NCBI GenBank assembly: GCA_964558115.1
Contig: CAZLCI010000002.1
Span: 507 to 64,506 of the forward strand
Source of the DNA: an uncultured Nitrospinaceae bacterium
Lineage (GTDB): Bacteria > UBA8248
Direction of reading: 5' to 3'
DNA: 64,000 bases
This document shows positions 21,349 through 64,000 of the stretch, one piece after another (position 1 is the stretch's first letter; the number at the start of each line of letters is the position of its first letter). A program made the position numbers and the translations under genes. A model generated the notes under the pieces. That model ran no database searches. It saw only the letters and a program-made list of their open reading frames with translations, and had not been told where the DNA came from.

Positions 21349-21379
21349 AAATTAAACCTCAAAAAAAGAATTTTTTTCA

Positions 21380-23371: not shown

Positions 23372-23454
23372 TTTTTCTCTCTGAATTTTTGATTTTGAAA
23401 GTTTGGTTAAAACTCAATACGACAATAAGAATGATAATAGTTCCATTGAACATT

Positions 23455-48013: not shown

Positions 48014-49687
48014 ATGCCAGAGATGAAAGGAGCTCGATACATCGGAGAATTTTTAGTTAAATACGGAGTAAGCACCTTTTTTTTTAAACCATCCGTACTA
48101 AGTAAAACTTTAGCGCAAATGGATGATTTGCCTATCAAAAGGGTTTTAACGCACGGAGAAAAATCAGCTGCTTACATGGCGGATGGTTACGCAAGAGCCT
48201 CCGGAAAACCTGGCGTATGCGGTGCGCAAACTGTAGGTGCGGCAAATTTAGCTGCAGGACTCCGCGACGCTTATATGGAGAATAGTCCGGTCATTTCATT
48301 GACGGGGGGGAGATTCCCACACTCGAAACATAAAAGACCTTACCAAGAAATAGATGACTATCCCATTTTCGAACCACTTACTAAAGCAAACTACCAGGTA
48401 GATGAAGTCGAGAGAATCCCTGATCTTATGAGACAAGCTTTTAGAGATGCAACATCAGGGACCCCAGGACCTGTAAATCTTCAGTTTTTGGGTCTTCACG
48501 GAGAAATTGAAAATGATACTGCAGATCTAGAAATGATTGTCGAAGAAGAATTTACGCAAGTTCCTTCTTACAGGTCATATCCAGATCAAGGACTACTTGA
48601 CAAATTACTTGTTAAACTAGAAAACGCAGAACGTCCAGTAATAATCGTCGACTCTGATGCAAGAAGATCCGGCGCTAGGGAAGAGTTATCTTCTCTTTCA
48701 CTTAAACTATCCATCCCAATCGCAACTTCGACTGGAGCGTATGCTCTTATACCAGATGATCATCCTAATTATATCGGAGTGCCTGGAACATATTCGAGAT
48801 CATGTTCAAATGAAATATTATCCAAAGCTGATCTAGTTGTCTTTATTGGGAGCGAAGTTGGAGGTCAAATCACACATTTTTGGAAACTTCCTATTCCAGG
48901 CACAGAAGTTATACAAATTGGAAATAACAGTTCCGAATTCGGAAGAACTTATCCAAATTCTCTATCAGTTTTAGGAGATGTAAAAATCACCATGCGTGAA
49001 CTCTTAAAAAAGATTCAGAAAGATAAAGAACCAACTTCATGGCTTTTAGAATCAAGAACAATAGTAGAAAAATGGAAAAAAGAACAATCTATTTTTAGAG
49101 ATTCAGAATCCTCTCCAATGCGCCCTGAAAGAATAATGAAAGAATTAGGTAGTTCTCTTCCAGAAAATGCTCTCTTAGTCTGTGATACTGGACATTCCGC
49201 CTTATGGGTAACACAACAATTATGGATGAATAGTAAATCATGGGATATGATCAGATGCGCTGGCTCTCTTGGATGGGCATTTCCTGCGTCCATTGGAGCA
49301 AAATGTGCTCTACCCGATCGTCCTGTTGTTTGTTTCACAGGAGATGGTGGTTTTTGGTATCATATTCAAGAAATTGAAACTGCTGCAAGATGTAAAATAC
49401 CGTCTGTAACTGTTGTAAATAATAATCATTCAATGAATCAAGAAATAAATGTATACACTGCTGCTTATGATGGAAAACCATCTGATAAGTGGGGAGATAT
49501 GTGGATTTTCAATAAAGTTAATTTCTCCAAAATTGCAGATGAAATGGGTGCTCAAGGGATTAGAGTCGAGGATCCAAATGAAATATCATCAGCTTTAGAC
49601 AAAGGGCTTAATACGCATGACAAACCAACGATTATTGAAGTGATCTCTGATATAGATGCCTTAGCTCCTAAAACATGGATGCCTTAA
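48014..49687 (+). CDS. thiamine-pyrophosphate enzyme, acetolactate-synthase/benzoylformate-decarboxylase-like
   Basis: 557 aa; the TPP N-terminal Pyr domain (…HGEKSAAYMADGYARASGKPGVC…) and C-terminal PP domain (GDGGFWYHIQEIETA…N). Paralogous to 54305-55993. Confidence 0.8.
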   Translation: MPEMKGARYIGEFLVKYGVSTFFFKPSVLSKTLAQMDDLPIKRVLTHGEKSAAYMADGYARASGKPGVCGAQTVGAANLAAGLRDAYMENSPVISLTGGRFPHSKHKRPYQEIDDYPIFEPLTKANYQVDEVERIPDLMRQAFRDATSGTPGPVNLQFLGLHGEIENDTADLEMIVEEEFTQVPSYRSYPDQGLLDKLLVKLENAERPVIIVDSDARRSGAREELSSLSLKLSIPIATSTGAYALIPDDHPNYIGVPGTYSRSCSNEILSKADLVVFIGSEVGGQITHFWKLPIPGTEVIQIGNNSSEFGRTYPNSLSVLGDVKITMRELLKKIQKDKEPTSWLLESRTIVEKWKKEQSIFRDSESSPMRPERIMKELGSSLPENALLVCDTGHSALWVTQQLWMNSKSWDMIRCAGSLGWAFPASIGAKCALPDRPVVCFTGDGGFWYHIQEIETAARCKIPSVTVVNNNHSMNQEINVYTAAYDGKPSDKWGDMWIFNKVNFSKIADEMGAQGIRVEDPNEISSALDKGLNTHDKPTIIEVISDIDALAPKTWMP

Positions 49688-49744
49688 ATTATTAACATAA
49701 AGCTTCTAAACAAAAAAATATTTTTAAATTGATGCGAGGGGAAA

Positions 49745-50935
49745 ATGTCCAAAAACAATTTACCATTATCTAGATTTAAAGTTCTCGATTTAACTACCGC
49801 CAGATCTGGCCCAACTGCCGTAAAACAACTCGCAGACTGGGGTGCAGATGTTATTAAAATTGAACCTTCAAGAAAAATTATTGCTTCTGGAGGTGGATTG
49901 TCCAGAGATAGGCATGGATATGAAATGCAAAATCTTCACAGAAACAAACGAGGTATGACATTAAATCTTAAAAGCAAAGAAGGTAAAGAGATTTTTTATA
50001 ATCTTGTTAAAAATTCAGACGTAGTCATAGAAAATTATCGTCCAGATGTCAAAAATCGCTTAAAAATAGATTACGAAACTTTAAAATCCATAAATAACAA
50101 AATAATTTTAGGAAGTATTTCAGGTTTTGGTCAATTTGGTCCGTATTCTAGTCGTCCGGGTTTAGATCAGATTGCTCAAGGGTTAAGTGGATTGATGTCT
50201 GTAACTGGAATGCCCGAAAATGGACCAACAAGAGTAGGTGTTCCAATCGGAGATCTCACCGCAGGAATGATGTTAGCACAAGGCATTCTTCTAGCTTTAT
50301 TAGAACGAGAGAAATCGGGTGAAGGTCAATGGGTACATACATCCCTTTTAGAGGGTCTGATTCAAATAATGGATTTACAAGCTGCTCGTTTCTTAATGGC
50401 AGGAGAAGTACCCAAACAAGTAGGTAATCTGCACCCGGTCTATTTACCAACTGGAGTTTTTCCAACTTCTGATTCTTCTATGAATATACAATCCCCTGGT
50501 CAGGTTTTTTGGAAAAGATTAAGTGCTGCCTTGGGGAAACCGGATCTTTATGACGATAAAGATTTTAAAACCCCAGAAGACCGATGGGAAAATAAAGATA
50601 GATTAAATAAAGAAATCTCAGAATTAACGATGAAAAAAACTACAGCAGAATGGGTTGAAATACTTAATGACGCCGGAGTACCTTGTGGCCCAATTCACAG
50701 AGTTAATGAGACATTTGCAGATCCTCAAGTTCAGCATCTAAATATGAATCCTGAACTAGAACACCCTGTGATCGGAAAGATAAATGTTGTAGGACAGGCA
50801 ATTAAATTAAGTAGGACTCCGCAAAAAATGCGATTTACTACTCCGGAAATTGGAGAACATAACGATGAAATCCTGTCTGAGTTGAAATACAGTGAAGAGG
50901 ATATCGAAAAATTCAAACAAGAGGATATAATCTAA
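49745..50935 (+). CDS. family III CoA-transferase (CaiB/BaiF family)
   Basis: 396 aa; N-terminal VLDLTTARSGPTAVKQLADWGADVIKIE and a catalytic Asp region; paralogue of 37129-38337. Confidence 0.85.
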   Translation: MSKNNLPLSRFKVLDLTTARSGPTAVKQLADWGADVIKIEPSRKIIASGGGLSRDRHGYEMQNLHRNKRGMTLNLKSKEGKEIFYNLVKNSDVVIENYRPDVKNRLKIDYETLKSINNKIILGSISGFGQFGPYSSRPGLDQIAQGLSGLMSVTGMPENGPTRVGVPIGDLTAGMMLAQGILLALLEREKSGEGQWVHTSLLEGLIQIMDLQAARFLMAGEVPKQVGNLHPVYLPTGVFPTSDSSMNIQSPGQVFWKRLSAALGKPDLYDDKDFKTPEDRWENKDRLNKEISELTMKKTTAEWVEILNDAGVPCGPIHRVNETFADPQVQHLNMNPELEHPVIGKINVVGQAIKLSRTPQKMRFTTPEIGEHNDEILSELKYSEEDIEKFKQEDII

Positions 50936-50939
50936 AATC

Positions 50940-51713
50940 TTAAATCATAATAATTCCACCATTTACATCTAAGGTTACACCGGTAATGTAACTTGCTTCA
51001 CGACTACATAAAAATAGTATTGGCCAAGCGATTTCTTCAGGATCACACATTCTACCCAAAGGGGAGTTCTGTTTTATTCTGTCCATCTGTTCTTCTGTTC
51101 TCATTGCAATAGTTCTAGGTGTATTCACATTTGCAGGAGCAACAGAATTTACTGTAATTCCAAAAGGTCCAAATTCTTTTGCTGCTTGTCTTGTTAATGA
51201 GAGCAAACCACCTTTAGAAGCGGTATAATGAGGGGAATGTGCGGCAGCACGAGCGGCGGCACTTGAAAGAGAAATAATTCTTCCATAATTGTTTTTTTTC
51301 ATAACTGGAGTTACTGCTTTCAGCAACAAAAAAAAACTTTTTAAATTATTATCCACAATATTATCCCACTCATCTACAGGAAGATCTGTGAGTGAAATAT
51401 ATTTTGGAAAACCACCTGCACTGTGGACTAAAGAATGTATATGTCCCTCTTCATTTTCAATTTTTTTGACTGCTTCTTTAATAGAAAGCCAATTAGTTAA
51501 ATCAAGACAGGAAACAAGAGCTTTACCTCCAGAATCAGATATATCATCAGCGACTCTCTCAGCACCTTTTTTATCGAAGTCCATAATTACAACATTTGCA
51601 CCTCGCGATGCAAATAATTTTGCACACATCTCGCCTATTCCAGTTGCTGCACCAGTAACAACTGCTACCTCACCATCAAAATTCATAATTAATGGATCAC
51701 GTTTATTCATCAT
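50940..51713 (-). CDS. short-chain dehydrogenase/reductase (SDR)
   Basis: 257 aa; TGAATGIG cofactor motif, NNAG, and the S…YxxxK catalytic triad (YTASK). Confidence 0.8.
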   Translation of the reverse strand: MMNKRDPLIMNFDGEVAVVTGAATGIGEMCAKLFASRGANVVIMDFDKKGAERVADDISDSGGKALVSCLDLTNWLSIKEAVKKIENEEGHIHSLVHSAGGFPKYISLTDLPVDEWDNIVDNNLKSFFLLLKAVTPVMKKNNYGRIISLSSAAARAAAHSPHYTASKGGLLSLTRQAAKEFGPFGITVNSVAPANVNTPRTIAMRTEEQMDRIKQNSPLGRMCDPEEIAWPILFLCSREASYITGVTLDVNGGIIMI

Positions 51714-51722
51714 TCTGATTTT

Positions 51723-52616
51723 CTAATCAAATCTTTCAGGCAAACCAGCCATTTTTCTTAAAACCTCAAAAACTGCCACAGAATCTCTCTCAGCATGACC
51801 ATTTTCATACGCATTCTGTGCCAATTGAGACCATATACTAGTCATCAACATTGGAGAACCAAATCTTTGTCCTTGTTCTAACATCAACCTTGAATCCTTT
51901 AAAGAAATTTTGATCAGTCCTTCTGGACTATAATCTCCATTTATCATTTTAGGACCTTTATCTATCATCGTTTTCGATGAACATGCACCGTCTTGAAGTA
52001 CTTCAAGTAAGTTATTTAACTCCATACCAGCTTTTGTTCCTAAGGACAGAGCCTCGGCGAGTGCAAGTCGATTACCTGCAAGAACTAAATTTATAATCAA
52101 TTTTGTCAGGGCTCCAGAACCAACCGCACCCATCAAGTAAGAAGCACGACTAAATCCATCAAAATATGGTTTGCAAGCATCAAAATCTTCTTGTTCCCCT
52201 CCTGCAATAATTATCAAATCTTTTTTCCAGGCCATTGCGCTTGTCCCACTAACCGCAGCATCAAGAAAACGGATTCCTTTCTCTGCCAATTCTTTTCCTA
52301 AACGCTCTGAATCCTCAGGTCTTGAGGTAGTAGCATCAGCTAGTATAAGACCTTCTTTTGCACTTTCCATGATTCCATTATTACCAAAAATTACTTCTCT
52401 AACTATATCGCTAGTAGGTAGAGAAGTTATCAACCAATTTACTCCATCTGCGGCAGTTGATGGAGAGTCGGCAGAAATACCACCTCTTTCTACAAATTCG
52501 TCAACTCTCTTTCCATCTAGATCGAAACCCTGCACTTCATAACCTGCATCAAGAAGATTTCCTGAAATAGCTGAACCCATCAATCCGATTCCTACAATAC
52601 CAACACGTTCTGACAT
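51723..52616 (-). CDS. NAD(P)-dependent 3-hydroxyacid dehydrogenase (3-hydroxyisobutyrate-dehydrogenase/6-PGDH-like family)
   Basis: 297 aa; N-terminal VGIVGIGLMGSAISGNL and the HIBADH-type catalytic Lys region (GxxxxGxxxK: GSGALTKLIIN). Confidence 0.8.
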   Translation of the reverse strand: MSERVGIVGIGLMGSAISGNLLDAGYEVQGFDLDGKRVDEFVERGGISADSPSTAADGVNWLITSLPTSDIVREVIFGNNGIMESAKEGLILADATTSRPEDSERLGKELAEKGIRFLDAAVSGTSAMAWKKDLIIIAGGEQEDFDACKPYFDGFSRASYLMGAVGSGALTKLIINLVLAGNRLALAEALSLGTKAGMELNNLLEVLQDGACSSKTMIDKGPKMINGDYSPEGLIKISLKDSRLMLEQGQRFGSPMLMTSIWSQLAQNAYENGHAERDSVAVFEVLRKMAGLPERFD

Positions 52617-52660
52617 ACTATAACCTCCAGTATTAAATTCTTTTGAAATTAAAAAGTGAC

Positions 52661-54286
52661 CTATCTAGGAATAAACGGAACAATCAGTCTAGATTGATCC
52701 TTCCCAGTTAAAATAGTGTTCGTGACTGACCTCGGAATTGGTTCATGTGTGTAAATTAGATTTGTGACTGGATCGCAAGATGAAATTTCTAATTTTAATA
52801 AATGTCCCTCAAGAAATAAATTACAAGTAGGAACTATTTCAATTTCGTACTCGTAAACTTCCCCTGGAACTATCAATTCCACTTTATCATGTGGGTGCCA
52901 AGGCCTCCAACTCTTACTTTTTTCTAAATCTAATGCCCTATGCGAAGCTTTTAAAAATCCACGGGTTAAAGTTTTCTCAGATCCATCTCGAAATTCATCT
53001 TTAATAAAAATAAACCAATCCGTATCATCCTGATCAGAAATTGCAAACAATTTGAGTACAAGAGGTCCTGTAATTTCAAATGGTTTTGTAGCAGGTTCAG
53101 TTTTAAAAACTAATTTTGGTTCACCGAATTTTGACTCTGGCGTTCCAGGAATAAATTTATAACTTCTCTCTCCAGAAGAGGAAACATTTCCAGTAAGCTT
53201 TTCACCATCAAGAAAAAGTTCCTTCCATTCCGTTCTCTCTAATGGCCATTCTTTCTCAGTCCTCCAAGTATTTTCCCCTTGAATAAAGATATTAATCGGA
53301 GGACCATCAGTTACTCCTGTATCCAATCCTTTTAAAAAATGGTCATACCATCGAAGAGCCTCAAAATGATATACCCCAAAAGGTCTTCTAGGCTGGGGTT
53401 CAGGACCAATCAACATTCTTTTTGTAGTGCTTTGGGGTATAAAATCCCAACCCTCAAATGCTCCTCTTAAATGAAGACCATAAAAATTCCAGTCACATCC
53501 AAGATATGTAGGGACTTGTATTTTGCTTAAATTAGACCATGAAGACCGTTCCTGAAAGTATTCACAATCAAGAGGATCATTTCCACCTAAAACACGGTTA
53601 AAATGGTAATTAAAACCCGAGAGATCTTTTACTCGACCACTTGTATGATTTAAGAACATTAAACTCGTGAACCAGAAACGTGCCCAAGCTGAATAGATCC
53701 CTCCATGATAGTAGGCATCACGATATAAGTCTGTCATTGCATCATAGGGAAAGATTGCAGAAAGTCCTTCCGGTTGCTGTTCCGCCGCAAGTAATTGACT
53801 CATCCCAAAATAAGAGCATCCAATCATACCTACTTTACCATTACACCATGGTTGATTAGCAATAAACTCAATCATCTCTTTTAAATCTTTTTGTTCTTCT
53901 GGACCCCAATGATCCCATGAACCTCCGGAATCGTTAGACCCTCTAACATCTGCAATAACTTGCACATATCCCCTGGGAACCCAAAATTCAGTTAACCCTG
54001 CCTCGTTTTGTCCGATAGGAACGATAGTCGGCTGTAGTTGTCGAGTATATGGAGACCAAGAAAGAAGAGCTGGAAATTTTTCACCGGGAACATTTGGTCT
54101 ATACACATCATAAGAAATATCTATGCCATCTCTTACTGTGAGTGTTTTTGAATTTTCTATAAAAACAGAATATTTAGGAAGAGAAATTTCTCTACTCTTG
54201 GGTTCTTCATTGAAAGGGTATTGCGGCCAGGATGATGGATTAACAGTTCGTATACTTTCCGGATTCACTTTAGGAAATTGAATCAC
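52661..54286 (-). CDS. CocE/NonD-family alpha/beta hydrolase (paralogue)
   Basis: 541 aa; about 50% identical to 29252-30898 over its length, the same GCSYFG nucleophile elbow. Confidence 0.7.
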   Translation of the reverse strand: MIQFPKVNPESIRTVNPSSWPQYPFNEEPKSREISLPKYSVFIENSKTLTVRDGIDISYDVYRPNVPGEKFPALLSWSPYTRQLQPTIVPIGQNEAGLTEFWVPRGYVQVIADVRGSNDSGGSWDHWGPEEQKDLKEMIEFIANQPWCNGKVGMIGCSYFGMSQLLAAEQQPEGLSAIFPYDAMTDLYRDAYYHGGIYSAWARFWFTSLMFLNHTSGRVKDLSGFNYHFNRVLGGNDPLDCEYFQERSSWSNLSKIQVPTYLGCDWNFYGLHLRGAFEGWDFIPQSTTKRMLIGPEPQPRRPFGVYHFEALRWYDHFLKGLDTGVTDGPPINIFIQGENTWRTEKEWPLERTEWKELFLDGEKLTGNVSSSGERSYKFIPGTPESKFGEPKLVFKTEPATKPFEITGPLVLKLFAISDQDDTDWFIFIKDEFRDGSEKTLTRGFLKASHRALDLEKSKSWRPWHPHDKVELIVPGEVYEYEIEIVPTCNLFLEGHLLKLEISSCDPVTNLIYTHEPIPRSVTNTILTGKDQSRLIVPFIPR

Positions 54287-54304
54287 CGCATTCCTCCAAA
54301 ATCT

Positions 54305-55993
54305 CTAAAATTCTGAATATGCTCCCGGAGCAAGCGCTTTAATATCAGTAACAACGTCTACAATAATGGGACCAGTTTTTGTTTTTAATGCTGTCTGAAG
54401 TTTTGGTTTAAGATCTTTCTCTTTTTCAATTCGAATCCCTTTAGCACCCATAGATTTGGCAACTTGCACAAAATTAGTTTTCTCAAAATGCCAAAGTTCA
54501 TGTGCTTTACCGTGCTGTTTTCCACCATATGCATCATCAAATATTTTAGTTTCTTGATTTTGGGAACTATTGTTATTCACAAGAATAACAACTGGGATTT
54601 TCCAACGAACAGCCGTCTCAATTTCTCCTATATGATACCAAAATCCCGCATCCCCAGTAAAAAGAACGACTGGACGATCGGGCGCAGCACACTTAGCTCC
54701 CATCGCGGCAGGAAAACCCCAACCCAAATGACCCGCAGCTCTTATAAAACTATGCTTGTCTCCATTTAAATCAAGGAAACCACCTGTCCACATTCCAGAA
54801 TGTCCTGTATCAGACAAAAGAATTGAATCGTTTGGCAAAATATCTGAAAGAACCTGACATACTCTCTCAGGCCTTATGGGATTCTTCTTTGAGTTCAATA
54901 ATGGAGCATATTCTTTTCTCCAATTTGAAACTATTTTACTAAACCTCTTATTCCAATTTACTCTCTTTTCATTTTGACTATCATCACAAAATTCAATTAA
55001 TTTACTTAAGGAAACTTTTGCATCTCCGTGAATAGATGCTTGTAAAGGATAATTCCTTCCAAGTTCCTCTGGATCTATATCTAATTGAATAGCAGATACT
55101 CCAATCTTAGGAACCTTCCAAAAATGAGTAGTCATTCCACCAGTTTGTGTTCCTACAAAGAAAACAAGATCAGCCTCTGAAACAACCTGGTTCGCACTTC
55201 TTCTAGAATAACTACCGACAACACCAACAGATAGTTGATGGTTCCCTGGAATAACTTCTTTCGCATTCATCGAAGTAGCAACTGGGATAGAAAGTTTTTC
55301 TGCAAGCTCGACTAGTTCCTTATGGGCTAGAGAAGTACGTACACCTCCACCACAAACAATAACAGGCTTTTTACTAGAACTAAGAATTTTTGCCGCTTTT
55401 TTTAACGAATTAATACTGGGCTCTGGACGGTAAGCAGGAGTACTCGTAAACTCTTTTTCTACAACAAGTTTAAGATTTCCTTTTTTCTGTTCTATTTGAC
55501 CTAAATTTCCAGCAAATCTCAAATGAACTGGTCCAGGCGTACCTGATGTAGCTACTCTAAAAGCTTGCCTTAGTAAATCTGGAAATCTTTCAACATCATC
55601 CACATACGCATTAAATTTCGTAACTGGATCGAACGCAGAAATATCTTCTACTTCTTGATATGGATTTCTATAACGTATCGATGGAGTTGTCCCACCTGTA
55701 AAAGCTATCACAGGAGAGCAACCTAAATAGGCCTCTCTAAGTCCCGCAGCAAGATTTACTCCTCCCACAATTTGCGCCATACAAATACCAGGACGTCCAG
55801 AAATTCGAGCATAAGCATCAGCCATATATGCAGCAGACTTTTCTCCGTGTGTCAAAACTCTAGAAATTCCTGTGTTCTTTTTATCCATTTGGGCCAAAGA
55901 ATGACTCAGAATTGTAGGGACGAAAAAAATATGCGTGACACCATATGCTTTCATAGTATCCGCCATAAACTCTGCACCTGACATTCTTGGCAT
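54305..55993 (-). CDS. thiamine-pyrophosphate enzyme, acetolactate-synthase-like (paralogue)
   Basis: 562 aa; about 55% identical to 48014-49687 (VLTHGEKSAAYMADAYARISGRPGIC…; GDAGFWYHIGEIETA). Confidence 0.8.
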   Translation of the reverse strand: MPRMSGAEFMADTMKAYGVTHIFFVPTILSHSLAQMDKKNTGISRVLTHGEKSAAYMADAYARISGRPGICMAQIVGGVNLAAGLREAYLGCSPVIAFTGGTTPSIRYRNPYQEVEDISAFDPVTKFNAYVDDVERFPDLLRQAFRVATSGTPGPVHLRFAGNLGQIEQKKGNLKLVVEKEFTSTPAYRPEPSINSLKKAAKILSSSKKPVIVCGGGVRTSLAHKELVELAEKLSIPVATSMNAKEVIPGNHQLSVGVVGSYSRRSANQVVSEADLVFFVGTQTGGMTTHFWKVPKIGVSAIQLDIDPEELGRNYPLQASIHGDAKVSLSKLIEFCDDSQNEKRVNWNKRFSKIVSNWRKEYAPLLNSKKNPIRPERVCQVLSDILPNDSILLSDTGHSGMWTGGFLDLNGDKHSFIRAAGHLGWGFPAAMGAKCAAPDRPVVLFTGDAGFWYHIGEIETAVRWKIPVVILVNNNSSQNQETKIFDDAYGGKQHGKAHELWHFEKTNFVQVAKSMGAKGIRIEKEKDLKPKLQTALKTKTGPIIVDVVTDIKALAPGAYSEF

Positions 55994-56040
55994 AAAAAAC
56001 TCCTTATCTCTTTTTAACTTTCTGAAACAACAATTTATTT

Positions 56041-56835
56041 TTATAGGCCTATCATCGCCTTAGCTTCATCAACCGAAGCGATTTCTCTACCCAATAATTT
56101 TGCTATATTAGCTATCCGATTTACATGCTCTGGATTATCTCCAAAAACGCCCGGGGTTAGAAATGGCTCATCCTCTGTTCCGACACGAACATGACCACCT
56201 TCCATGACAGCCATAGTCTCTAAATGAAGATGAGTATTACCCGTTACGCTTGTTATATATATTGAGTCCTCAGGAAGTGCAGAAACTCTATGCAAAAATT
56301 CTTTCATCGTTGCTGGAGACCATGCACCACCAGGCCTGCCAAAAAATACTGTCATTAGAACTGGAGTTTTAATTAGATCTTTCTCTAACAAATCATTAAT
56401 CATCCATAATTCCCCGATACTAAATACTTCAAACTCTGGTTTCACATTATAGTCAGCGCAAAGTTTCATCATATCTGCAATTTCATCTCGGGGATGTAAC
56501 ATCATAACGTCACCCTGAAGAAAAGCCATATTATGAGCTCCAACTGCAACAGACATCATTTCAGGCTTAAACTTCACTACTTCACGCCTTTGCTCAAGGG
56601 TCTGCGTAGAAATACCATACTGCAACATAACGGGACAAGAATCACGAATGGCTTTTGTATGATTTTCCCAAGCTTCATAATTTGTAGGAGGAGCATGGAT
56701 ATGAGCGATACAAGAACCTGCTTCCCATCCTTTTTTAACGGAACTAGCTAAAACCTCCGAATCGTGAAATCTTTTTTCAACACCTTCGTGCATAGATGTA
56801 TCTGCTGCACAATTGATAATCATAAGTTTTGACAT
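56041..56835 (-). CDS. BKACE-family (DUF849) beta-keto-acid cleavage enzyme (3-keto-5-aminohexanoate cleavage enzyme-like)
   Basis: 264 aa; a C-terminal GGHVRVGTEDEPF…G.N.E.V.R.A.IA…GRE.A…EA…GL signature typical of BKACE. Confidence 0.7.
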   Translation of the reverse strand: MSKLMIINCAADTSMHEGVEKRFHDSEVLASSVKKGWEAGSCIAHIHAPPTNYEAWENHTKAIRDSCPVMLQYGISTQTLEQRREVVKFKPEMMSVAVGAHNMAFLQGDVMMLHPRDEIADMMKLCADYNVKPEFEVFSIGELWMINDLLEKDLIKTPVLMTVFFGRPGGAWSPATMKEFLHRVSALPEDSIYITSVTGNTHLHLETMAVMEGGHVRVGTEDEPFLTPGVFGDNPEHVNRIANIAKLLGREIASVDEAKAMIGL

Positions 56836-56860
56836 TAATAATCCCTCATTACTAAAAAAT

Positions 56861-57610
56861 TTAATTAAGCCCTAGAATCTGTTTGGTTTCCTCAACAGTT
56901 GCAGGTTCTCTTCCTAGTTCTTTTGAAATTCGGACCATTCTCGAAACAAGTTGTGCATTATCCTCAGCCAAAACTCCTTTAGTATAATAAGGTTCATCCT
57001 CCGTACCAACTCGGACATGACCTCCTTGAATAATAGAAACCGTTTCTAAAGCAACATTACTCAAACCAGCAGCACTAACAGAGAAAACAGAATTTGCAGG
57101 TAAATGTTCAATGCGATGCAGTAATTCTTTTAAAGTTGCTGGAGACCAAAATCCGCCTGGCCATCCGAAAAATATGGTCAAAACAACTGGATTTTTTACT
57201 AAATCTTTCTCTAAAAGCCATTCTAAATTCCATAAATGTCCCAAATTAAAACACTCAAATTCTGGATGCACTCCATTGTCATTGAATAGTCGTACCTGAT
57301 CTTCAATTTCCTGTCTTGAATGCTCAACTAAGAGATCTGCATCAACAAACGCAAAATCATGAGAACCAAGAGCGATGGAAGCCATATCAGGTTTCAAATG
57401 AACTATTTTCTTTCTTCCTGGCAAACCCATAGCAGCTATTCCGAATTGAATGAGAATTTCAGGACAAGCTTCTCGTACTGCATTCGTAAAAGGTTCCCAA
57501 CTATCTAACTGCATTGGAATTCCATGAATATGTGCTATCGAAGCACCTGCGTCGTAACTTGCCTTAATTTCACTTGCAAGGGATTCCGCAGTCTGAAGAC
57601 GTTTTGGCAC
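56861..57610 (-). CDS. BKACE-family (DUF849) beta-keto-acid cleavage enzyme, paralogue; annotated start probably too short
   Basis: 249 aa from a GTG. The same BKACE C-terminal signature (GGHVRVGTEDEPYY…GREPATVEETKQILGL). The conserved N-terminal strand (…KLIITNCAADS…, cf. the paralogue's LMIINCAADTS) is encoded in-frame upstream of the GTG, up to a TAG at 57679-57677, with no ATG/GTG/TTG available. Confidence 0.65.
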   Translation of the reverse strand: MPKRLQTAESLASEIKASYDAGASIAHIHGIPMQLDSWEPFTNAVREACPEILIQFGIAAMGLPGRKKIVHLKPDMASIALGSHDFAFVDADLLVEHSRQEIEDQVRLFNDNGVHPEFECFNLGHLWNLEWLLEKDLVKNPVVLTIFFGWPGGFWSPATLKELLHRIEHLPANSVFSVSAAGLSNVALETVSIIQGGHVRVGTEDEPYYTKGVLAEDNAQLVSRMVRISKELGREPATVEETKQILGLN

Positions 57611-57706
57611 ACCTGGATGCTTACGACTATCTGCTGCACAATTAGTTATTATTAACTTTTCGATTTTAACTTCCTCCTACAATAGAAAAGATTGAAAATA
57701 TAATCA

Positions 57707-58477
57707 TTAATCAATACTACTTTCAGCGTATAATAAACCTCTAATTCTTTGGGTTAACGAAACAAATTCGGGATCTCCCATTGTCTTAAGATCTCGAGGA
57801 CGTGGAATATCTACTGGAATAATCTCCGCAATTTTTCCTGGTCTTGCAGTCATGACAACAATTCGATCTCCTAGAAAAACAGCCTCTGGAATACTATGAG
57901 TGATAAAGAAAACTGTTTTTTTACTTTCCAACCAAATTCTCTGTAGTTCTAGATTCATCTGTTCTCTTGTCATAGCGTCCAAAGCACCAAAAGGTTCATC
58001 CATAAGCAAAAGACTTGGATCATGTATTAATGCTCTAATTATAGAGTTTCTTTGTTTCATTCCACCTGATAATTCATGAGGGAATTTATCTTCAAATCCA
58101 TCAAGACCAACCAAATTGATTAATTCTTTAGCTCTTTTAATTGTCACTTCTGAATCAAGTTTTAAGATTTCAGAGGGAAGAAGCGTATTTTGTAGTACAG
58201 TTCTCCAGAGAAGAAGAACAGGGTCTTGAAAAACAATTCCAACATCATTTCGAGGACCTTCAATCGCAGTATTATTTAAAGTGGCAACACCGGATGTTTT
58301 TGCTAAGAGACCACTTAAAATTTTTAATAATGTACTTTTTCCACATCCACTAGGACCAACAACAGAAATAAACTCTCCTTCAGAAATATCCAAATTTATA
58401 TCAGATAGAGCATGGACAATTTCACCAGTCGAGGTGATGTATTCCTTTTCTAAATTTTTAACAGAAATGTAAGACAT
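57707..58477 (-). CDS. ABC transporter ATP-binding protein (NitT/TauT-type)
   Basis: 256 aa; Walker A GPSGCGKST, ABC signature LSGGMKQR, Walker B LLLMDEPFGALD. Confidence 0.85.
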   Translation of the reverse strand: MSYISVKNLEKEYITSTGEIVHALSDINLDISEGEFISVVGPSGCGKSTLLKILSGLLAKTSGVATLNNTAIEGPRNDVGIVFQDPVLLLWRTVLQNTLLPSEILKLDSEVTIKRAKELINLVGLDGFEDKFPHELSGGMKQRNSIIRALIHDPSLLLMDEPFGALDAMTREQMNLELQRIWLESKKTVFFITHSIPEAVFLGDRIVVMTARPGKIAEIIPVDIPRPRDLKTMGDPEFVSLTQRIRGLLYAESSID

Positions 58478-58507
58478 TTTTAAATTTCAATTTTAAGTTT
58501 TAAAAAA

Positions 58508-59452
58508 TTAAGTTCCTGTTGTTTGTTCTGTTTCTGGTGCCCAAAAAAGAACCCTCTTCTTTACAAAATGAACAGCTTTATGCATTGCTAAACCTATCAT
58601 TGAGAGAAGTACCAAAATGGCAAATGTACCAGTGGTATCGGCAGCAAAACTCATCTGCATTAAGAGAACTCCTAATCCGCATTGTCCTTTTCCACCCCAC
58701 ATACACATGCCCGCACCAACAAACTCTCCTAGTAGTGCACCAAGCAAACTAAAAACTACTGCTATCTCAAATCCTGCAAAAATAAAAGGTAGAGCATTTG
58801 GAAATTGTAATTTTCTAAAGGTGGTCCACCTTGAAGCTGATAAAGAACGAAGCAAATCTAACTGGTCTTGATCTGCAGATCTTAAACCAACCATCGTATT
58901 TACAAGAAGTGGAAAGAAAGCAACTAATCCTGCCAGAAAAATCTTAGATTCGATTTCATATCCGAACCAGATTATAAATAATGGTGCAATAGCAAGTTTA
59001 GGCAAAGTCTGGAAAGCTACAACATATGGCATGATAATAGCCTCTACCCATCTAGACTGCATAAAAACTAAACCAAGTCCAAGACCTATAAAACTACCTA
59101 AGAAAAAACCTAATACTGCTTCAAAAAGTGTGTGACTAATATGGAGATAAAAACTATTTTGCATTACACTTGTAAAATCTCCTGCACCAACAGAATCTCC
59201 AGTTTCTATAAAAAAGAGGCCTCTAAGTAAAGATTTACCTACATCAATAGGAGCAGGAAAGATAAAATCATCAACATCAAAAAAGACAACTATAAAATGC
59301 CAAAACAAAAGCAAAAACACAAAAGACACAGGAAATAACCAAAAATTTCTTTTTTGGTAAAGTACTGCTGACAAACTAGAAGTCCGTAATTCCTCGGATT
59401 CATTTATTGAATCCGAGGAATTAGTTTCTGAAATTTCACGATTATTCTTCAT
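58508..59452 (-). CDS. ABC transporter permease (NitT/TauT/SsuC-type)
   Basis: 314 aa; about six hydrophobic helices and the EAA-like loop region typical of binding-protein-dependent permeases. Confidence 0.75.
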   Translation of the reverse strand: MKNNREISETNSSDSINESEELRTSSLSAVLYQKRNFWLFPVSFVFLLLFWHFIVVFFDVDDFIFPAPIDVGKSLLRGLFFIETGDSVGAGDFTSVMQNSFYLHISHTLFEAVLGFFLGSFIGLGLGLVFMQSRWVEAIIMPYVVAFQTLPKLAIAPLFIIWFGYEIESKIFLAGLVAFFPLLVNTMVGLRSADQDQLDLLRSLSASRWTTFRKLQFPNALPFIFAGFEIAVVFSLLGALLGEFVGAGMCMWGGKGQCGLGVLLMQMSFAADTTGTFAILVLLSMIGLAMHKAVHFVKKRVLFWAPETEQTTGT

Positions 59453-59458
59453 ATTTTC

Positions 59459-60607
59459 TTATTGTTTATATTTTTTCAAAAGAGCTCTATATTTTTTCAA
59501 CTCTTTGTCTATATCAAATTTTTTCGCTCTTCTAATTACTTCTTCTTTGTCAAAATTATTTACTTCTGCGATAAGATCATTAGTCCACAAACGTTTTACT
59601 TGTGAATCTGATAATTTTTTATCTAAACCAACAAATTTGACATATTCATTCCATTCTCCCGCATGATGAGCACCAAATCGCTTATCTTTTTCATCATCTA
59701 CCATCAATTTAGGAGCACGTGCATGTAGTACTTTAATAAATTTTTCTGATGCTTTCTTACGACTCATTCCTTTGGGTACCGACTCTGGATAAAGAACCCA
59801 ATGTATTTTTAATGCTGCTTCTGGATTTGTGTAGAAGAAAAGACTACCTTTAGCCAGACCTTTCAGAAAACCAACCGCGGTTTTCCTATTGTTTTTAAGA
59901 TACTTTGTGTTAAGCCATACTACATTCCCAAATAAATTCTTTGTCCAACTTTCCTGATAAGGAACAAATCTCAATTTAAAACCTGCAGCTTGTGTAAGAG
60001 TATATTGAACATCAACACTTGCCCAAGCATCGATTCTACCAAGCTTCATGGCTGTAGCTGCTTTTGATCCTGCACCTACTGGAAGAAAAATAACATTTTG
60101 TTTTGCGGCAGGAATGCCACAAGTTTCAAGCGCTTTTTTAATAAAAATTTGACCTGCATCCCTTGCACTCATTAATCCAACTCTCTTACCCTGCAGATCA
60201 CAAACAGATTTTATTGAACTATTTGGTGGAACAGCGACTGCTTCACCATAAATTGCATCTCTATTTAAAATATAAACACCTGTAACTGGTGGCCACTTTT
60301 TTCCTCTTGCCGCTTTAAATAAAATAGGAATAGGCCTAGGTAATCCTACATGGGTTCTCCCAGCTAGTACCCAACCCATTGCTTGTGCACCACCTTGAGC
60401 AGCAACAAATTCAGCATCTACTCCCTCTTCTTGATAATATCCAAGAAAATTACTCACCCAAAGAAATGCTAATCCTGGATTAAAAAGTGGATTTGCCATA
60501 GTAACTTTAATGTTCGATAGTTTTTTAGCCGCAAAACTCTTATTGGTTGGCGCAAGCAGAACTAACAAACAAAGTACCAAAAAAATTCTTAAAAAATACT
60601 TACCCAT
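59459..60607 (-). CDS. ABC transporter periplasmic substrate-binding protein (NMT1/THI5-like, NitT/TauT family)
   Basis: The track ORF extends to 60724 and overlaps the upstream gene. The likely start is the internal ATG at 60607 (MGKYFLRIFLVLCLLVLLAPTNKSFAAKK signal peptide), preceded by the RBS GGGGGAG. Confidence 0.7.
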   Translation of the reverse strand: MGKYFLRIFLVLCLLVLLAPTNKSFAAKKLSNIKVTMANPLFNPGLAFLWVSNFLGYYQEEGVDAEFVAAQGGAQAMGWVLAGRTHVGLPRPIPILFKAARGKKWPPVTGVYILNRDAIYGEAVAVPPNSSIKSVCDLQGKRVGLMSARDAGQIFIKKALETCGIPAAKQNVIFLPVGAGSKAATAMKLGRIDAWASVDVQYTLTQAAGFKLRFVPYQESWTKNLFGNVVWLNTKYLKNNRKTAVGFLKGLAKGSLFFYTNPEAALKIHWVLYPESVPKGMSRKKASEKFIKVLHARAPKLMVDDEKDKRFGAHHAGEWNEYVKFVGLDKKLSDSQVKRLWTNDLIAEVNNFDKEEVIRRAKKFDIDKELKKYRALLKKYKQ

Positions 60608-60638
60608 AATCACTCCCCCTTTAAGAAATGAAAAAAAA

Positions 60639-61406
60639 TCAATCTTCAATAATTGCAACCGGCCTAACCCAAGCACCACTTGCATCTTTAATATTAATTG
60701 GAAAACAACAAAGCTTGAAACCATGTGGTTTAGGAATAGATCCTATATTTGCAACTTGCTCTATCTGAAAGTACTCACGTTGCCTTCCTAAAATATGGTG
60801 GCATGGCATCAAAGACTCTCTTTTTCCAGCTTTAAATTCAGGAATTTGATTGCTAAAAGGTCTATCAAACCCAAAAGCATCAATACAAATCACTCGGACA
60901 CCTCGGTCAAGCAAGAATTCCGTAGACTCAATGCTCATACCTGGGTGGAGTTCAGAATAATTTGGATCATCCCTTTTTTCGTCCGTACCAGTCCAAAGAA
61001 GTATGATGTTTCCTTCTTTAACTTCATATTCTATTTTTTTTAAGCAGGACTCTATATCACTTGCCGTTATCCAATCTCCCGTATTCTTATGACGCAAATC
61101 TAATACAACTCCGTCTCCATAGCACCATTCTAGTGGGATTTGATCTACCTTCCTCGAAACCTCTCCTGCAACAGTAGGTCCATAATGCCACGGTGCATCC
61201 ATGTGAGTTGCTGAATGTGTAGAAACCGTGACCATTTCAGCAGCTCCGCCAACACCATCATGTATATCTTCTATTTTGACACCCCATTTTTTTGCCGAAT
61301 TAGTTCCAAACTCCTTATGATCCATATAAGTTATTTCCGGAGGACGTGGTTCATAAGAGCCATTCATCATTGGAGTACTAAGATCAATAAATTGAACTGC
61401 ACACAT
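60639..61406 (-). CDS. cyclase-family metal-dependent hydrolase (kynurenine-formamidase/isatin-hydrolase-like)
   Basis: 255 aa; the HxGTHxDxPxH cyclase signature (STHSATHMDAPWHYG). Confidence 0.7.
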   Translation of the reverse strand: MCAVQFIDLSTPMMNGSYEPRPPEITYMDHKEFGTNSAKKWGVKIEDIHDGVGGAAEMVTVSTHSATHMDAPWHYGPTVAGEVSRKVDQIPLEWCYGDGVVLDLRHKNTGDWITASDIESCLKKIEYEVKEGNIILLWTGTDEKRDDPNYSELHPGMSIESTEFLLDRGVRVICIDAFGFDRPFSNQIPEFKAGKRESLMPCHHILGRQREYFQIEQVANIGSIPKPHGFKLCCFPINIKDASGAWVRPVAIIED

Positions 61407-61441
61407 ATTTTTTCCTTACCTCTAAGTATAAATAAAATATT

Positions 61442-62677
61442 TTAAACAACCCAAAGTTTTCTTTCCTGCGGATATATAAAATCATACCCATCTTTCGTGA
61501 CTATTACAGTCTTTTCAATCTGAGTTCCACCTACACCAAAAACCTGACAAGGATTCTCAATACAAATAGTCGTTCCTTCTTCCAATGGAAAATCACTTGA
61601 GGAAGGCAGAAAAGGACTATTTGTTGGAGAAGGATCAGAGAGAACATAAGGGACTTCTCTTTGTTCCAATCCAATAGCATGACCTGCAAAATTCCCATTA
61701 TGTTCAGGAAGACCCCCTTCTTTCGTACCTTCTAACAGTGCTCTATAAATCTCAGATCCTAATACACCTGCTTTTACCTTTGAAAGACCTGCGTCAAAAC
61801 CTGCTAGGGTTGCATCCCAAATATTAAGTTGTTCATCAGTTGGTTCTCCAAGAACTCCGCCCCAACCTGTATCAGACTGATAATTTCCAAGTACAAGACC
61901 AGCATCAAATTTCCACATTTCTCCTTTATTTATTTTTTTGTCCGTAGGAGGGAAAATTCCGGTCGCACGTCTACCAGAACAAAAGTGAAACCACTGCCAA
62001 ATTCCACCCCCTCTACCAACTTCACTTCGGAAAACAGAGGCAACTTCTTGTTCTGTTGCTCCTTCTTTTACAGCTTCAGAAGCTGCAATACAAGATTTCT
62101 CATTTAGAGCTGCCGCAGCTTTCATAGCATTGAGTTCATCTTGAGTTTTTACCATTCTAATTAGACGGAATAAATCACTAGCCTCTATTATTTCTGCATC
62201 AGGAAGAGCGTCCTCAATTTGTTTCCTTACAGTAGGAGTTACCCTTTCCTGATCAAGAGCTAATCTTCCCTTGTCTAAACCTCTGTCACGTAGGGCCATT
62301 GCAAGAGATGCTCCTGGACTTTTTTCTCGCTTGGAATCGTTATTGTACATTCCTAAGTAAGTTTCTTCTTCTGGAGTTTCCGCTTTTTTATCTGGTGGTT
62401 GGATAAGAGCACTTTTACCACCAAAAGTATAATGTTCCTTAATCCATGATTGTTGCATAGAGACATATGTTACTTCCTGTCCAGGAACTATCAATGCAGG
62501 AGATATCGATTCATCAACAGCAAAGAGAGCAAACATATGAACTGAATATGCATATACTTTATTTGACCATCCAACCGTGCCCCCAAGATATGTCACATTT
62601 TCCGGAGTACTAGCAATGAGTACATCTACATTGAACTCTTTCATCAATTTTCTTGCACGACTTTCATTTAAATACAT
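61442..62677 (-). CDS. M24-family metallopeptidase/amidinohydrolase (Xaa-Pro aminopeptidase/creatinase/ectoine-hydrolase-like)
   Basis: Creatinase-like N-terminal domain followed by a pita-bread catalytic domain with His/Asp/Glu metal ligands (…HAIGLE…). The track ORF starts at 62761; an internal ATG at 62677 preceded by GGAGA is a more plausible start. Confidence 0.65.
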   Translation of the reverse strand: MYLNESRARKLMKEFNVDVLIASTPENVTYLGGTVGWSNKVYAYSVHMFALFAVDESISPALIVPGQEVTYVSMQQSWIKEHYTFGGKSALIQPPDKKAETPEEETYLGMYNNDSKREKSPGASLAMALRDRGLDKGRLALDQERVTPTVRKQIEDALPDAEIIEASDLFRLIRMVKTQDELNAMKAAAALNEKSCIAASEAVKEGATEQEVASVFRSEVGRGGGIWQWFHFCSGRRATGIFPPTDKKINKGEMWKFDAGLVLGNYQSDTGWGGVLGEPTDEQLNIWDATLAGFDAGLSKVKAGVLGSEIYRALLEGTKEGGLPEHNGNFAGHAIGLEQREVPYVLSDPSPTNSPFLPSSSDFPLEEGTTICIENPCQVFGVGGTQIEKTVIVTKDGYDFIYPQERKLWVV

Positions 62678-62857
62678 ATGGTAATCTCCAAAAACAAACA
62701 ACCGCATAGATGCGTAGAAAGATATTGAATATACAATTGATTTATGAAAGCAAATTAGCACTTTTTTCTTTGCTTCGTAAATAGGATGTAGATAAAAAAC
62801 TTAAAAGATGATATCTATTGTCCCCAATAAATATAATTTTGGATTGGGTAGGCAAGA

Positions 62858-64000
62858 ATGGAATCAAAAAAAACTAAAAACAATAACGAGTCGTTAAAGT
62901 GGCTTGAGATTTCTGATAAACTTAGCAGAAGCAGATTTGCCTCCCGGGCAAAAACAATAGACGAAGAATCCAGATTTCCAAAAGAGAATTACGAGGACCT
63001 TAAGGAAACAGGACTGCTTGCACTTTCTGTTCCCAAGGAATATGGAGGAATTGGGGCAGATGCTCTCACTTACGTAAAAGTTTTATCAAATATAGCAAGA
63101 GGCTGTGCATCCACTGGACTAACATTTAATATGCATAGTGCGGTTGTAGACTTCATGAAACAACTTGCCTCCCCAGAGCAACAAGAAGAATACTTCACAA
63201 AAGTAGTAAAAGATGGTGCTATTTTTGCCTCTATTACTAGTGAGCCAGGAAGCTCTTTTAGAGACAAATTATCCGTTCGAACCTCAATAAGAAAATTTGA
63301 AGAAAGTAAATTTAAAATCCAAGGCAAAAAACATTTCTGTTCTTTATCTACGGGTGCGGATTTTTACTTTACTTGGAGTTTTTTGGATGGTTCAGAAAAT
63401 TTAAAAGACGGACTTTATAATGTTATGATTCCTTCTTCACGTGAGGGTATTGAGATTTTAGATGATTGGAATACGATTGGAATGAGAGGTACTGCATCTA
63501 ATTCAGTCATATTCAATGATGTAGAGGTATCTAAAGAAGAAGTGATTGGAGTTCCAGGTAGTATACTTGGCAAAGATATGAGTATGTGGTCACTCGGATA
63601 TACTGCTGTATATATAGGAATAGCAGAAGCAGCATACGAATTCACATTGAACTACGCTAAAAACAAGAAATCTGGATTAGGAGTTCCATTACCTGAACTA
63701 GAGAGAACTCAAAGACAGATTGGAGAAATGTCAATGATTCTCGAAAACGCTAGAAGAGCTGCTGAAAAACTTGGGATGCTCCGTGGAAATATGAATAAAA
63801 TGGAACTAACCTTTATGTTAAATCAGGCAAAATATTTAGCAACTGAAGCCGCTAGAGAATTGGCAGAAAGAGGAATCCGCTTTTGTGGAGGTCTTGGTCT
63901 TCAACGTGATCTTCCGCTAGAAAGACATCTCAGAGATTCTATTGCAGGAGTTGTGATGCCACCATCAAACGATCGTTGTCTAGAAACAGTTGGGCAAATC
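62858..64000 (+). CDS. acyl-CoA dehydrogenase (3' end beyond the window)
   Basis: Open reading frame from the ATG at 62858 to the window end: MESKKTKNNNESLKWLEISDKL…ITSEPGSSFRDK…GIRFCGGLGLQRDLPLERHLRD…, an acyl-CoA dehydrogenase N/M/C-domain pattern. Not in the ORF track because it is open-ended. Confidence 0.75.
   Translation, partial: MESKKTKNNNESLKWLEISDKLSRSRFASRAKTIDEESRFPKENYEDLKETGLLALSVPKEYGGIGADALTYVKVLSNIARGCASTGLTFNMHSAVVDFMKQLASPEQQEEYFTKVVKDGAIFASITSEPGSSFRDKLSVRTSIRKFEESKFKIQGKKHFCSLSTGADFYFTWSFLDGSENLKDGLYNVMIPSSREGIEILDDWNTIGMRGTASNSVIFNDVEVSKEEVIGVPGSILGKDMSMWSLGYTAVYIGIAEAAYEFTLNYAKNKKSGLGVPLPELERTQRQIGEMSMILENARRAAEKLGMLRGNMNKMELTFMLNQAKYLATEAARELAERGIRFCGGLGLQRDLPLERHLRDSIAGVVMPPSNDRCLETVGQI

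Follow-up and report, generated by a model that had tools for sequence, protein, structure and literature searches.

The genes described here lie in a stretch of 64,000 nucleotides (the window) on contig CAZLCI010000002.1 of an uncultured Nitrospinaceae bacterium (assembly GCA_964558115.1), a marine metagenome-assembled genome (MAG) of low GC content (~35%). A preliminary description of this DNA had placed a co-directional, importer-linked operon of catabolic type, with eleven genes on the minus strand, at 50940-62761. The open reading frame (ORF) listing and profile scans agree with this description, and all eleven ORFs are present within a corrected span of 50940-62677. They are transcribed in the order M24 metallohydrolase, cyclase-family hydrolase, binding protein, permease and ATPase of an ATP-binding cassette (ABC) importer, two beta-keto acid cleavage enzymes (BKACE-A and BKACE-B), a thiamine diphosphate (ThDP) enzyme resembling acetolactate synthase (ALS; here TPP1), a CocE/NonD hydrolase, a dehydrogenase resembling 3-hydroxyisobutyrate dehydrogenase (HIBADH) and a short-chain dehydrogenase/reductase (SDR) (Table 1). 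The operon's upstream neighbour is a divergent acyl-CoA dehydrogenase gene 183 nt away, and its downstream neighbour a convergent CoA-transferase gene whose end is 4 nt from the SDR stop codon. An identical BKACE-B protein is encoded on a TARA Oceans scaffold of 155 kb and on 13 further contigs, of which those listed come from marine metagenomes, and the closest genomes are MAGs labelled 'uncultured Nitrospinaceae' and 'Nitrospinota', with M24 identities of 95-97%.

Table 1. Genes and other features of the operon and its borders. Positions are those of the window.
Feature	Position	Strand	Remarks
M24 metallohydrolase with Creatinase_N, 411 aa	61442..62677	-	PF00557 and PF01321; first operon gene, conserved core
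Cyclase-family metal-dependent hydrolase, 255 aa	60639..61406	-	PF04199, 1.5e-34; conserved core
NMT1/THI5-like periplasmic substrate-binding protein, 382 aa, N-terminal signal peptide	59459..60607	-	PF09084
ABC permease	58508..59452	-	BPD_transp_1, Pfam 9.6e-27
ABC ATPase	57707..58477	-	Pfam ABC_tran
BKACE-A, 267 aa, ATC start	56861..57664	-	PF05853, 5e-58; conserved core
BKACE-B, 264 aa	56041..56835	-	PF05853, 2.9e-46; conserved core
ALS-like ThDP enzyme TPP1, 562 aa	54305..55993	-	Three TPP domains; last conserved-core gene
CocE/NonD alpha/beta serine hydrolase, 541 aa	52661..54286	-	TIGR00976; lineage-specific accessory
HIBADH-family beta-hydroxyacid dehydrogenase, 297 aa	51723..52616	-	PF03446 NAD_binding_2 and PF14833 NAD_binding_11; accessory
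FabG-like SDR, 257 aa	50940..51713	-	adh_short_C2, 6.6e-61; accessory, last operon gene
Candidate promoter/operator block	62750..62812	.	Conserved in the divergent M24/acyl-CoA-dehydrogenase intergenic region
ThDP enzyme TPP2	48014-49687	+	Pfam; 49% identical to TPP1; convergent neighbour, possibly linked
CoA-transferase family III	49745-50935	+	Pfam; convergent neighbour, possibly linked

Three gene starts were corrected, those of M24, the binding protein and the first BKACE. M24 starts at the ATG at 62677 rather than the GTG at 62761, which gives a 411-aa protein beginning 'MYLN', as in every orthologue. The binding protein starts at 60607, the same 382-aa gene call (signal peptide included) being found on the source scaffold, and therefore does not overlap the cyclase gene. 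With these corrections the intergenic gaps are 6-47 nt rather than about 0-45 nt, and the packing is as tight as first described. BKACE-A starts with a non-canonical ATC at 57664 and not with the GTG at 57610. No ATG, GTG or TTG is present upstream of codon 19; in frame from the ATC the first barrel strand ('EKLIITNCAAD'), which in orthologues begins with an ATG-encoded Met, is restored, and an AGGAGG ends 8 nt upstream of the ATC (region 57610-57675). Six independent assemblies of the lineage and the two closest relatives (loci L013 and L015) all have the ATC, and in 17 other loci the BKACE-A gene has ATG at this codon. Public gene calls cut BKACE-A down to 249 or 217 aa, without the first barrel strand.

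Families were assigned by Pfam and NCBIfam profile scans of the operon proteins. Strong scores supported the family previously named for each of the eleven, and none meets the cut-off of any substrate-specific NCBIfam model. To follow conservation of the cluster, a single genome from each GTDB species was scanned with an alignment of M24 homologues, which returned 51 loci; the window proteins were mapped onto these by tblastn (spurious antisense ORFs swamp ORF clustering of high-GC loci), and the 37 loci that reach at least 8 kb beyond M24 in the downstream direction were taken as informative. Cyclase, at least one BKACE and TPP1 follow in the order of the window in 23 of the 37, that is, in all 23 of the loci whose M24 is at least 73% identical. 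These belong to other species-level genomes of Nitrospinota, Tectomicrobia and unnamed MAGs, with protein identities of ~68-84% that rise to 89-99% in L013 and L015. The ABC genes lie inside the core in 20 of the 23, both BKACEs are kept in 15 of the informative loci, and the cyclase directly follows M24 in 32 of all 51. Three loci (L022, L023 and L062) have no importer genes and their core enzymes are still contiguous. The Tectomicrobia clusters have, in addition, an upstream gene for a GntR/FCD regulator and an internal TAXI-TRAP importer, features typical of catabolic loci.

The conserved unit thus consists of eight genes, encoding M24, the cyclase, the three-gene ABC importer, BKACE-A/B and TPP1, and the recurrence of this gene order in 23 other species-level genomes far exceeds chance. 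The preliminary description had treated the whole cluster as one unit; the neighbourhood search upheld this for the eight-gene core and not for the full eleven genes. Among the informative loci the CocE/NonD and HIBADH-like genes follow TPP1 in L013 and L015 only, where the position of the SDR gene lies beyond the fetched flank, and all three genes are recent additions in the lineage of the window. Our favoured reading, in which we place about as much belief as doubt, is that the operon is catabolic, probably nitrogen-scavenging, and serves a small imported ring compound.

The cyclase matches PF04199 at 119.7 bits (cut-off 23.1), and H64, H68, D70 and H74, which we take to be the HxxxHxDxxxH metal motif of that family, are invariant across 12 homologues. 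Structures of the cyclase and of M24 were modelled with AlphaFold (predicted local distance difference test scores of 80.5 and 75.5, respectively) and compared with the PDB by Foldseek. Among solved structures the cyclase is closest, in sequence and in fold alike, to the isatin hydrolases, a type of lactam hydrolase (Foldseek E = 2e-14). It did not qualify as an arylformamidase of the KynB type, with 32 bits against 223 for TIGR03035.

Genomic contexts of cyclase relatives were obtained from a metagenome scan with the cyclase alignment, which gave 80 loci, ~55 of them informative (at least 4 kb). The closest relatives (58% identical) lie in clusters with molybdenum (Mo) hydroxylases, NicX-like genes and M24. 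In one of these (L069) the cyclase (58%), an NMT1 binding protein (34%) and M24 (46%) stand beside two Mo-hydroxylase large subunits and LigAB, and in L067/68 the cyclase lies inside a Mo-hydroxylase operon, the position of a 46% relative in a Chloroflexi genome. Locus L066 (4906-13609) holds two consecutive cyclase-M24 pairs, preceded by a NicX-like gene and followed by a TPP1 orthologue (66%), an ABM monooxygenase and a zinc alcohol dehydrogenase (Zn-ADH), with an Asp/Glu-racemase-family gene also present; this layout suggests that cyclase and M24 work together as a pair when heterocycles are broken down. A BKACE gene directly adjoins a cyclase homologue (40-49% identical) in 13 of the ~55 informative loci, some of which consist of a BKACE-cyclase-BKACE-cyclase array with an ABC importer and a TrmB regulator and no other enzymes. 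Two couplings recur independently, that of cyclase with BKACE and that of M24 with a ThDP enzyme (plus the cyclase and an NMT1 binding protein), and the Nitrospinota core unites both. Taken together, the contexts of cyclase relatives point to hydrolytic ring opening, either of a lactam or N-heterocycle or of a cyclic 1,3-dione. Tandem arrays with ABC ATPase genes were seen at L110 (1155-6008), L139 (982-4768) and L140 (7061-13440), the last also with a Peripla_BP_6 binding protein, a TrmB regulator and BKACEs just under the 3,5-dioxohexanoate cut-off.

A nitrogen-free pathway was considered for the second of these ring types. Here a cyclic 1,3-dione or polyphenol ring would be reduced by the SDR, cleaved at a C-C bond by the cyclase and oxidised by the HIBADH-like enzyme, and the BKACE would release acetoacetate. 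A cyclase-family enzyme is known to open dihydrophloroglucinol by C-C cleavage upstream of a BKACE in the PGR-DPGC-TfD-TAL cluster of Clostridium scatologenes (PMC10470551), and the window has all four of its enzyme types (SDR, cyclase, hydroxyacid dehydrogenase and BKACE), with a PF04199 ring opener upstream of a BKACE as in that cluster. Moreover, four scanned BKACEs adjacent to cyclase homologues score 337-400 bits with the model of the 3,5-dioxohexanoate enzyme (cut-off 430), so that the cyclase-BKACE loci look like phloroglucinol-like modules. The BKACEs of the window, however, score only 126 and 97 bits with the same model, are shorter (264-267 aa) and form a separate subfamily outside the assigned ones that is not TAL-like. 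The window further has an ABC importer, a ThDP enzyme resembling ALS and an M24 amidohydrolase that is always linked to the cyclase; its SDR and hydroxyacid dehydrogenase are outside the conserved core (CocE/NonD and HIBADH being missing from 21 of the 23 clusters, with the SDR outside the fetched flank), and its dehydrogenase is of the HIBADH type rather than the 3-hydroxyacyl-CoA-dehydrogenase type of TfD. A cyclic 1,3-dione is the poorer fit, since M24 is always present beside the cyclase. The closest cyclase relatives, moreover, keep the company of M24, NicX-like genes and Mo-hydroxylases, and we regard the nitrogen-free pathway as improbable.

M24 scores 118 bits with PF00557, and its orthologues are 73-97% identical in Nitrospinota and Tectomicrobia and 54-62% in Alphaproteobacteria. 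The di-metal ligands D258, D269, H333, E374 and E388 are invariant and all five align with those of prolidases. With DoeA/EutD, creatinase and prolidase (M24B) the protein shares Creatinase_N and the pita-bread fold, and it differs from them in a 12-residue insertion before the fourth ligand. It falls far below the NCBIfam cut-offs for DoeA (57 bits against 613), DddP (41 against 600) and PepQ (84 against 630), as well as for creatinase-type models, and is ~20% identical to prolidases, DoeA and creatinases each. The best sequence matches among solved structures are prolidases and aminopeptidase P, creatinase structures being matched at just 38-39 bits; in the Foldseek comparison prolidase, DoeA and creatinase matched equally well, which confirms the fold only. 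Creatinase is without the metal site found in this M24. Creatinine and creatine were rejected as substrates because M24 keeps that site and scores far below creatinase relatives.

The prolidase and aminopeptidase P matches with a full metal site, together with the match of the CocE/NonD protein to Peptidase_S15 and the lineage-specific nature of the three distal genes, might also be explained by a mosaic of separate parts. In it the importer and unrelated hydrolases would scavenge proline-containing peptides, M24 serving as the prolidase and CocE/NonD as an X-Pro dipeptidyl peptidase, while the BKACE/ThDP unit and the two dehydrogenases would each have a business of their own. Such independence is hard to reconcile with the contiguity of M24, cyclase, BKACE and ThDP genes across phyla, even after importer loss, and with the adjacency of M24 homologues to ThDP enzymes in three other contexts, and the importer is of the NitT/TauT and not the Opp/Dpp type. 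We therefore consider a mosaic quite improbable.

Twelve loci of marine Alphaproteobacteria (OCS116, Rhodobiaceae and Hyphomicrobiales; M24 54-62%) hold a differing cluster, with neither cyclase nor BKACE. In these a TPP2 homologue (56-59%) directly precedes M24, a HIBADH homologue (61-63%) follows it, and a CitE-like lyase and a CoA-transferase gene lie upstream. Clusters of this kind, with homologues of three window genes, were recorded at L042, L044 and L046-L056 (e.g. L052, 3500-15100). The one locus annotated beyond the homologues of window genes, L052, contains an ABC transporter, a CitE-like lyase, a CoA-transferase, a TPP2-like enzyme, M24, an alpha/beta hydrolase, Zn-ADH, HIBADH and a protein resembling dihydrodipicolinate synthase. 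A TPP2 homologue (65%) also follows the M24 homologue in L039.

BKACE-A and BKACE-B score 197 and 158.5 bits with PF05853 (gathering cut-off 24.8). As the preliminary description had held, they are tandem paralogues; they are 49% identical and their catalytic residues are intact. The Zn ligands H45, H47 and E222, as well as E137 and R218, are invariant in both proteins and six homologues and align to 2Y7D; E137 and R218 are the equivalents of the catalytic E143 and R226 of Kce. Retention of the Zn and catalytic residues places neither protein in the inactive 'G7' group of the family. All eight aligned sequences have Phe139 at the position of Tyr145 in Kce and Tyr173 in PdKce. The implied absence of the pair from assigned BKACE groups was also confirmed, since both lie far below the cut-offs of all three assigned subfamilies: 173 and 142 bits with the Kce model (cut-off 382), 137 and 91 bits with that of 3-oxoadipate:acetyl-CoA acetyltransferase (NF053568, cut-off 350), and, for the 3,5-dioxohexanoate enzyme (NF053538), the scores given above. 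Among the available models BKACE-A is closest to Kce; Pfam and NCBIfam scans revealed none of the lysine-fermentation neighbours kamA, kamDE, kdd and kal in the operon.

TPP1 is below every NCBIfam cut-off, including that for acetohydroxyacid synthase (AHAS; TIGR00118, 351 bits against 538), and no ilvN-like small-subunit gene lies beside it, as would be expected of a biosynthetic AHAS. The best solved relative is BbmA (8X3X, 249 bits), followed by AHAS (207). The CocE/NonD protein scores 263 bits with TIGR00976 (cut-off 66) and has a GxSxG-type motif, 'GCSYFG'. The HIBADH-like enzyme is below the cut-offs for tartronate-semialdehyde reductase, threonate dehydrogenase and HIBADH, and the best solved relatives of the SDR are FabG 3-oxoacyl reductases.

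The importer is of the NitT/TauT type, comprising an exported NMT1/SsuA-like binding protein, a single BPD_transp_1 permease and a taurine/sulfonate/nitrate-like ATPase; the signal peptide of the binding protein marks the ABC system as an importer. Its substrate is not assignable from these matches, since all three proteins are below the cut-offs of substrate-specific models: the binding protein has a sub-threshold SsuA_fam match (65 bits against 163.5), the permease is closest to the SaoP, SsuC and TauC types, and the ATPase to the SaoA, taurine and nitrate types.

Gene content, gene order, conservation and the integrity of catalytic residues were observed directly, and from them we infer the steps of a pathway as follows. 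The NitT/TauT-type, binding-protein-dependent ABC system would import the ring compound, which the cyclase-family metal hydrolase would open, characterised relatives acting on a C-N bond in isatin and 2,3,6-trihydroxypyridine and on a C-C bond in dihydrophloroglucinol. The di-metal M24 enzyme would then remove an amide-linked nitrogen group as ammonia, urea or an amine. BKACE-A/B would cleave the resulting beta-keto acid with acetyl-CoA to an acyl-CoA and acetoacetate, and the Tyr-to-Phe change may signal a variant of this cleavage chemistry. The ALS-like ThDP enzyme would make or break a C-C bond beside a 2-oxo or 2-hydroxy-acyl group of the other fragment. Of the accessory enzymes, the CocE/NonD esterase/amidase, the HIBADH-like enzyme and the SDR probably widen the range to ester or hydroxy derivatives, and the neighbouring CoA-transferase, TPP2 and acyl-CoA dehydrogenases probably process the products onward.

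The core holds neither a redox enzyme nor an aminotransferase, so that the beta-keto acid for the BKACEs must come from hydrolysis alone. An origin of this kind fits a cyclic beta-keto-lactam, an imide or a hydroxylated N-heterocycle, and this is the most likely substrate class, since none of these would require a dehydrogenase or oxygenase on the way to a beta-keto acid. One described counterpart is the lower 2-hydroxypyridine/nicotine pathway, in which cyclase-family enzymes are credited with the C-N opening of 2,3,6-trihydroxypyridine to 2-oxoglutaramate and an amidase then frees ammonia and a 2-oxo acid (PMC6214936, PMC9304392). A 2-oxo acid would suit a ThDP enzyme. In the window, however, the amidase candidate is M24 rather than an omega-amidase of the nitrilase superfamily, the core is without a hydroxylase or oxygenase, and there are BKACE genes, which that pathway does not have. 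More specific candidates were not adopted, as supporting evidence was not found for uracil or barbiturate (with urea release), 2,4,6-trihydroxypyridine or 3-oxoglutarimide, or tetramic acids, nor for ectoine-like amidines, N-formyl enamides of the maleamate pathway, sulfonates or thiamine pyrimidines.

Several observations weigh against a catabolic ring-opening operon as outlined here. M24, which is no nearer to prolidases than to DoeA or creatinases, may be a genuine peptidase, and the M24 homologues paired with cyclases in L066 are just 34-36% identical. Some of the 23 genomes are interrelated, so part of the core synteny may reflect shared ancestry. The canonical BKACE reaction is not assured, because the Phe is shared with the non-canonical BsfD described below. 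The role given to the ThDP enzyme is a guess, and its nearest solved relative, BbmA, is presumably biosynthetic. Comparison of the binding protein with solved structures gave no informative liganded relative, the best match (E=1.5e-9) being an uncharacterised protein.

A biosynthetic role was also considered, in which the ThDP enzyme would act as a carboligase to form an alpha-hydroxy-beta-keto acid, a BsfD-like BKACE would acetylate and decarboxylate it, and the 'cyclase' would cyclise the product to yield an acyloin or beta-diketone. That the nearest solved relative of TPP1 is BbmA, presumably not a catabolic enzyme, and that the cyclase family is named after polyketide cyclases would agree with this, as would the Phe at the position of Kce Tyr145, a substitution that BsfD of flavophos biosynthesis combines with non-canonical chemistry (bioRxiv 10.64898/2026.01.15.699783). 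BsfD, though, belongs to a phosphonate biosynthetic cluster and carries a ~20-residue insertion with Arg91, whereas the BKACEs of the window are linked to an importer and no phosphonate genes accompany them. ABC and TRAP systems that depend on binding proteins serve for import, there is a gene for a GntR/FCD regulator, relatives occur in oxidative ring-degradation clusters, and no exporter, resistance or precursor-supply genes were seen. A biosynthetic role is accordingly very improbable in our view.

Returning to catabolism, the preliminary description had proposed that the operon imports an osmolyte-like, nitrogen-containing beta-hydroxy acid, unmasks it with the hydrolases, oxidises it with the HIBADH-like enzyme or the SDR and cleaves the beta-keto acid so formed with the BKACEs. 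The carnitine pathway, with its carnitine dehydrogenase and a BKACE that cleaves dehydrocarnitine, is a precedent for such a route, and both carnitine catabolism and lysine fermentation (Kce) apply BKACE chemistry to a nitrogen-bearing beta-keto acid. Both dehydrogenases are encoded in the operon, a FabG-like SDR suits beta-keto/beta-hydroxy chemistry, and BKACE-B homologues (62-63%) are paired with an SDR gene elsewhere, including in other Nitrospinaceae. Against this, CocE/NonD and HIBADH are absent from 21 of the 23 conserved clusters, and the SDR is outside the view in the two that have them. Since the dehydrogenases are outside the conserved core, the step from dehydrogenase to BKACE is not part of the conserved pathway, and the earlier idea that a dehydrogenase makes the beta-keto acid was not supported. 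The BKACEs differ from Kce in score and in the Phe at Tyr145, profile scans found no 3HCDH-type (carnitine-dehydrogenase-type) gene in or beside the operon, and the transporter belongs to a type other than the OpuA/ProU one for betaine and carnitine. The proposal would also give no account of the ThDP enzyme or of the pairing of M24 with the cyclase, which is strictly conserved. Nothing pointed to an osmolyte-like hydroxy acid, and the contexts of cyclase relatives indicate ring opening instead, so we judge this proposal, too, to have a low probability. One locus would partly rescue the dehydrogenase idea, L009, in which an SDR gene (56% to the SDR of the window) is directly upstream of a BKACE gene (63% to BKACE-B).

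Upstream of the operon, a candidate promoter or operator lies at 62750-62812. This block of ~60 nt is near-invariant in the window, L013, L014 and L015, in contrast to the variable intergenic sequence on either side, and an imperfect inverted repeat of 18 nt falls within it (62762-62799). An E-value scan of 47000-64000 against Rfam found no relevant riboswitch or other RNA leader, and promoter and terminator consensus scans did no better than on shuffled sequence. At the opposite end, between 50935 and 50940, no terminator-like hairpin accompanies the 4-nt spacing of the convergent SDR and CoA-transferase gene ends, so that opposing transcripts would overlap or collide. A homologue of this CoA-transferase (60%) is likewise convergent to the core in L007/L060.

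About 20 kb beyond the SDR end of the operon (29252-50935) are packed with catabolic-type genes, several of them paralogous to operon members. They include a second CocE/NonD gene (29252-30898; 50% identical) with an M20-like gene, a D-2-hydroxyacid dehydrogenase, two acyl-CoA dehydrogenases, a second CoA-transferase III, an FAD flavoprotein, an isocitrate/isopropylmalate-dehydrogenase-family protein, a CrtO/amine-oxidase-like protein, a GFO/IDH/MocA oxidoreductase and TPP2. Such a load of catabolic genes is unexpected for a presumed autotroph. Further away (19744-24621) a second module that may serve the use of cyclic amides was noted, a hydantoinase/oxoprolinase A and B pair beside a gene for a class I/II aminotransferase. 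On the source scaffold, beyond the 3′ end of the window and the divergent acyl-CoA dehydrogenase (L001, 1-4000), lie an EamA transporter, a further acyl-CoA dehydrogenase and a second M24/Creatinase_N protein (399 aa).

Nitrospinaceae are best known as nitrite oxidisers, and urea and cyanate are their known organic nitrogen sources. They are regarded as chemolithoautotrophs (PMC7005884). The cluster reuses known enzyme families and a known logic, a cyclase followed by an amidase or a BKACE. Literature searches on BKACE and on the gene combination gave no published description of the cluster, no Pfam or NCBIfam model scanned describes the combination, and a term search of a recent comparative study of the phylum Nitrospinota (PMC10839748) did not turn the cluster up; the earlier statement that no described pathway matches thus stands.

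We consider it possible, though rather unlikely, that the family that dominates nitrite oxidation in the ocean, together with many other Nitrospinota and Tectomicrobia, has here a dedicated, undescribed pathway, by which a dissolved N-heterocycle or lactam would be imported and dismantled by hydrolysis only, two metal hydrolases freeing reduced nitrogen before a new BKACE subfamily (with the Tyr-to-Phe change, often as an A/B pair) and a ThDP enzyme yield acetoacetate and acyl-CoA. If true, relatives of nitrifiers would draw on organic nitrogen and organic carbon by a new route, and the BKACEs would gain a new class of substrate. The small size of the core, four or five enzymes and a binding protein, makes the question directly testable. 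A conserved pathway of this kind would add a new branch to the BKACE family, for which few substrates have so far been assigned, and a new dissolved-organic-nitrogen substrate to the repertoire of marine nitrifiers, in which the use of organic nitrogen is an active question.

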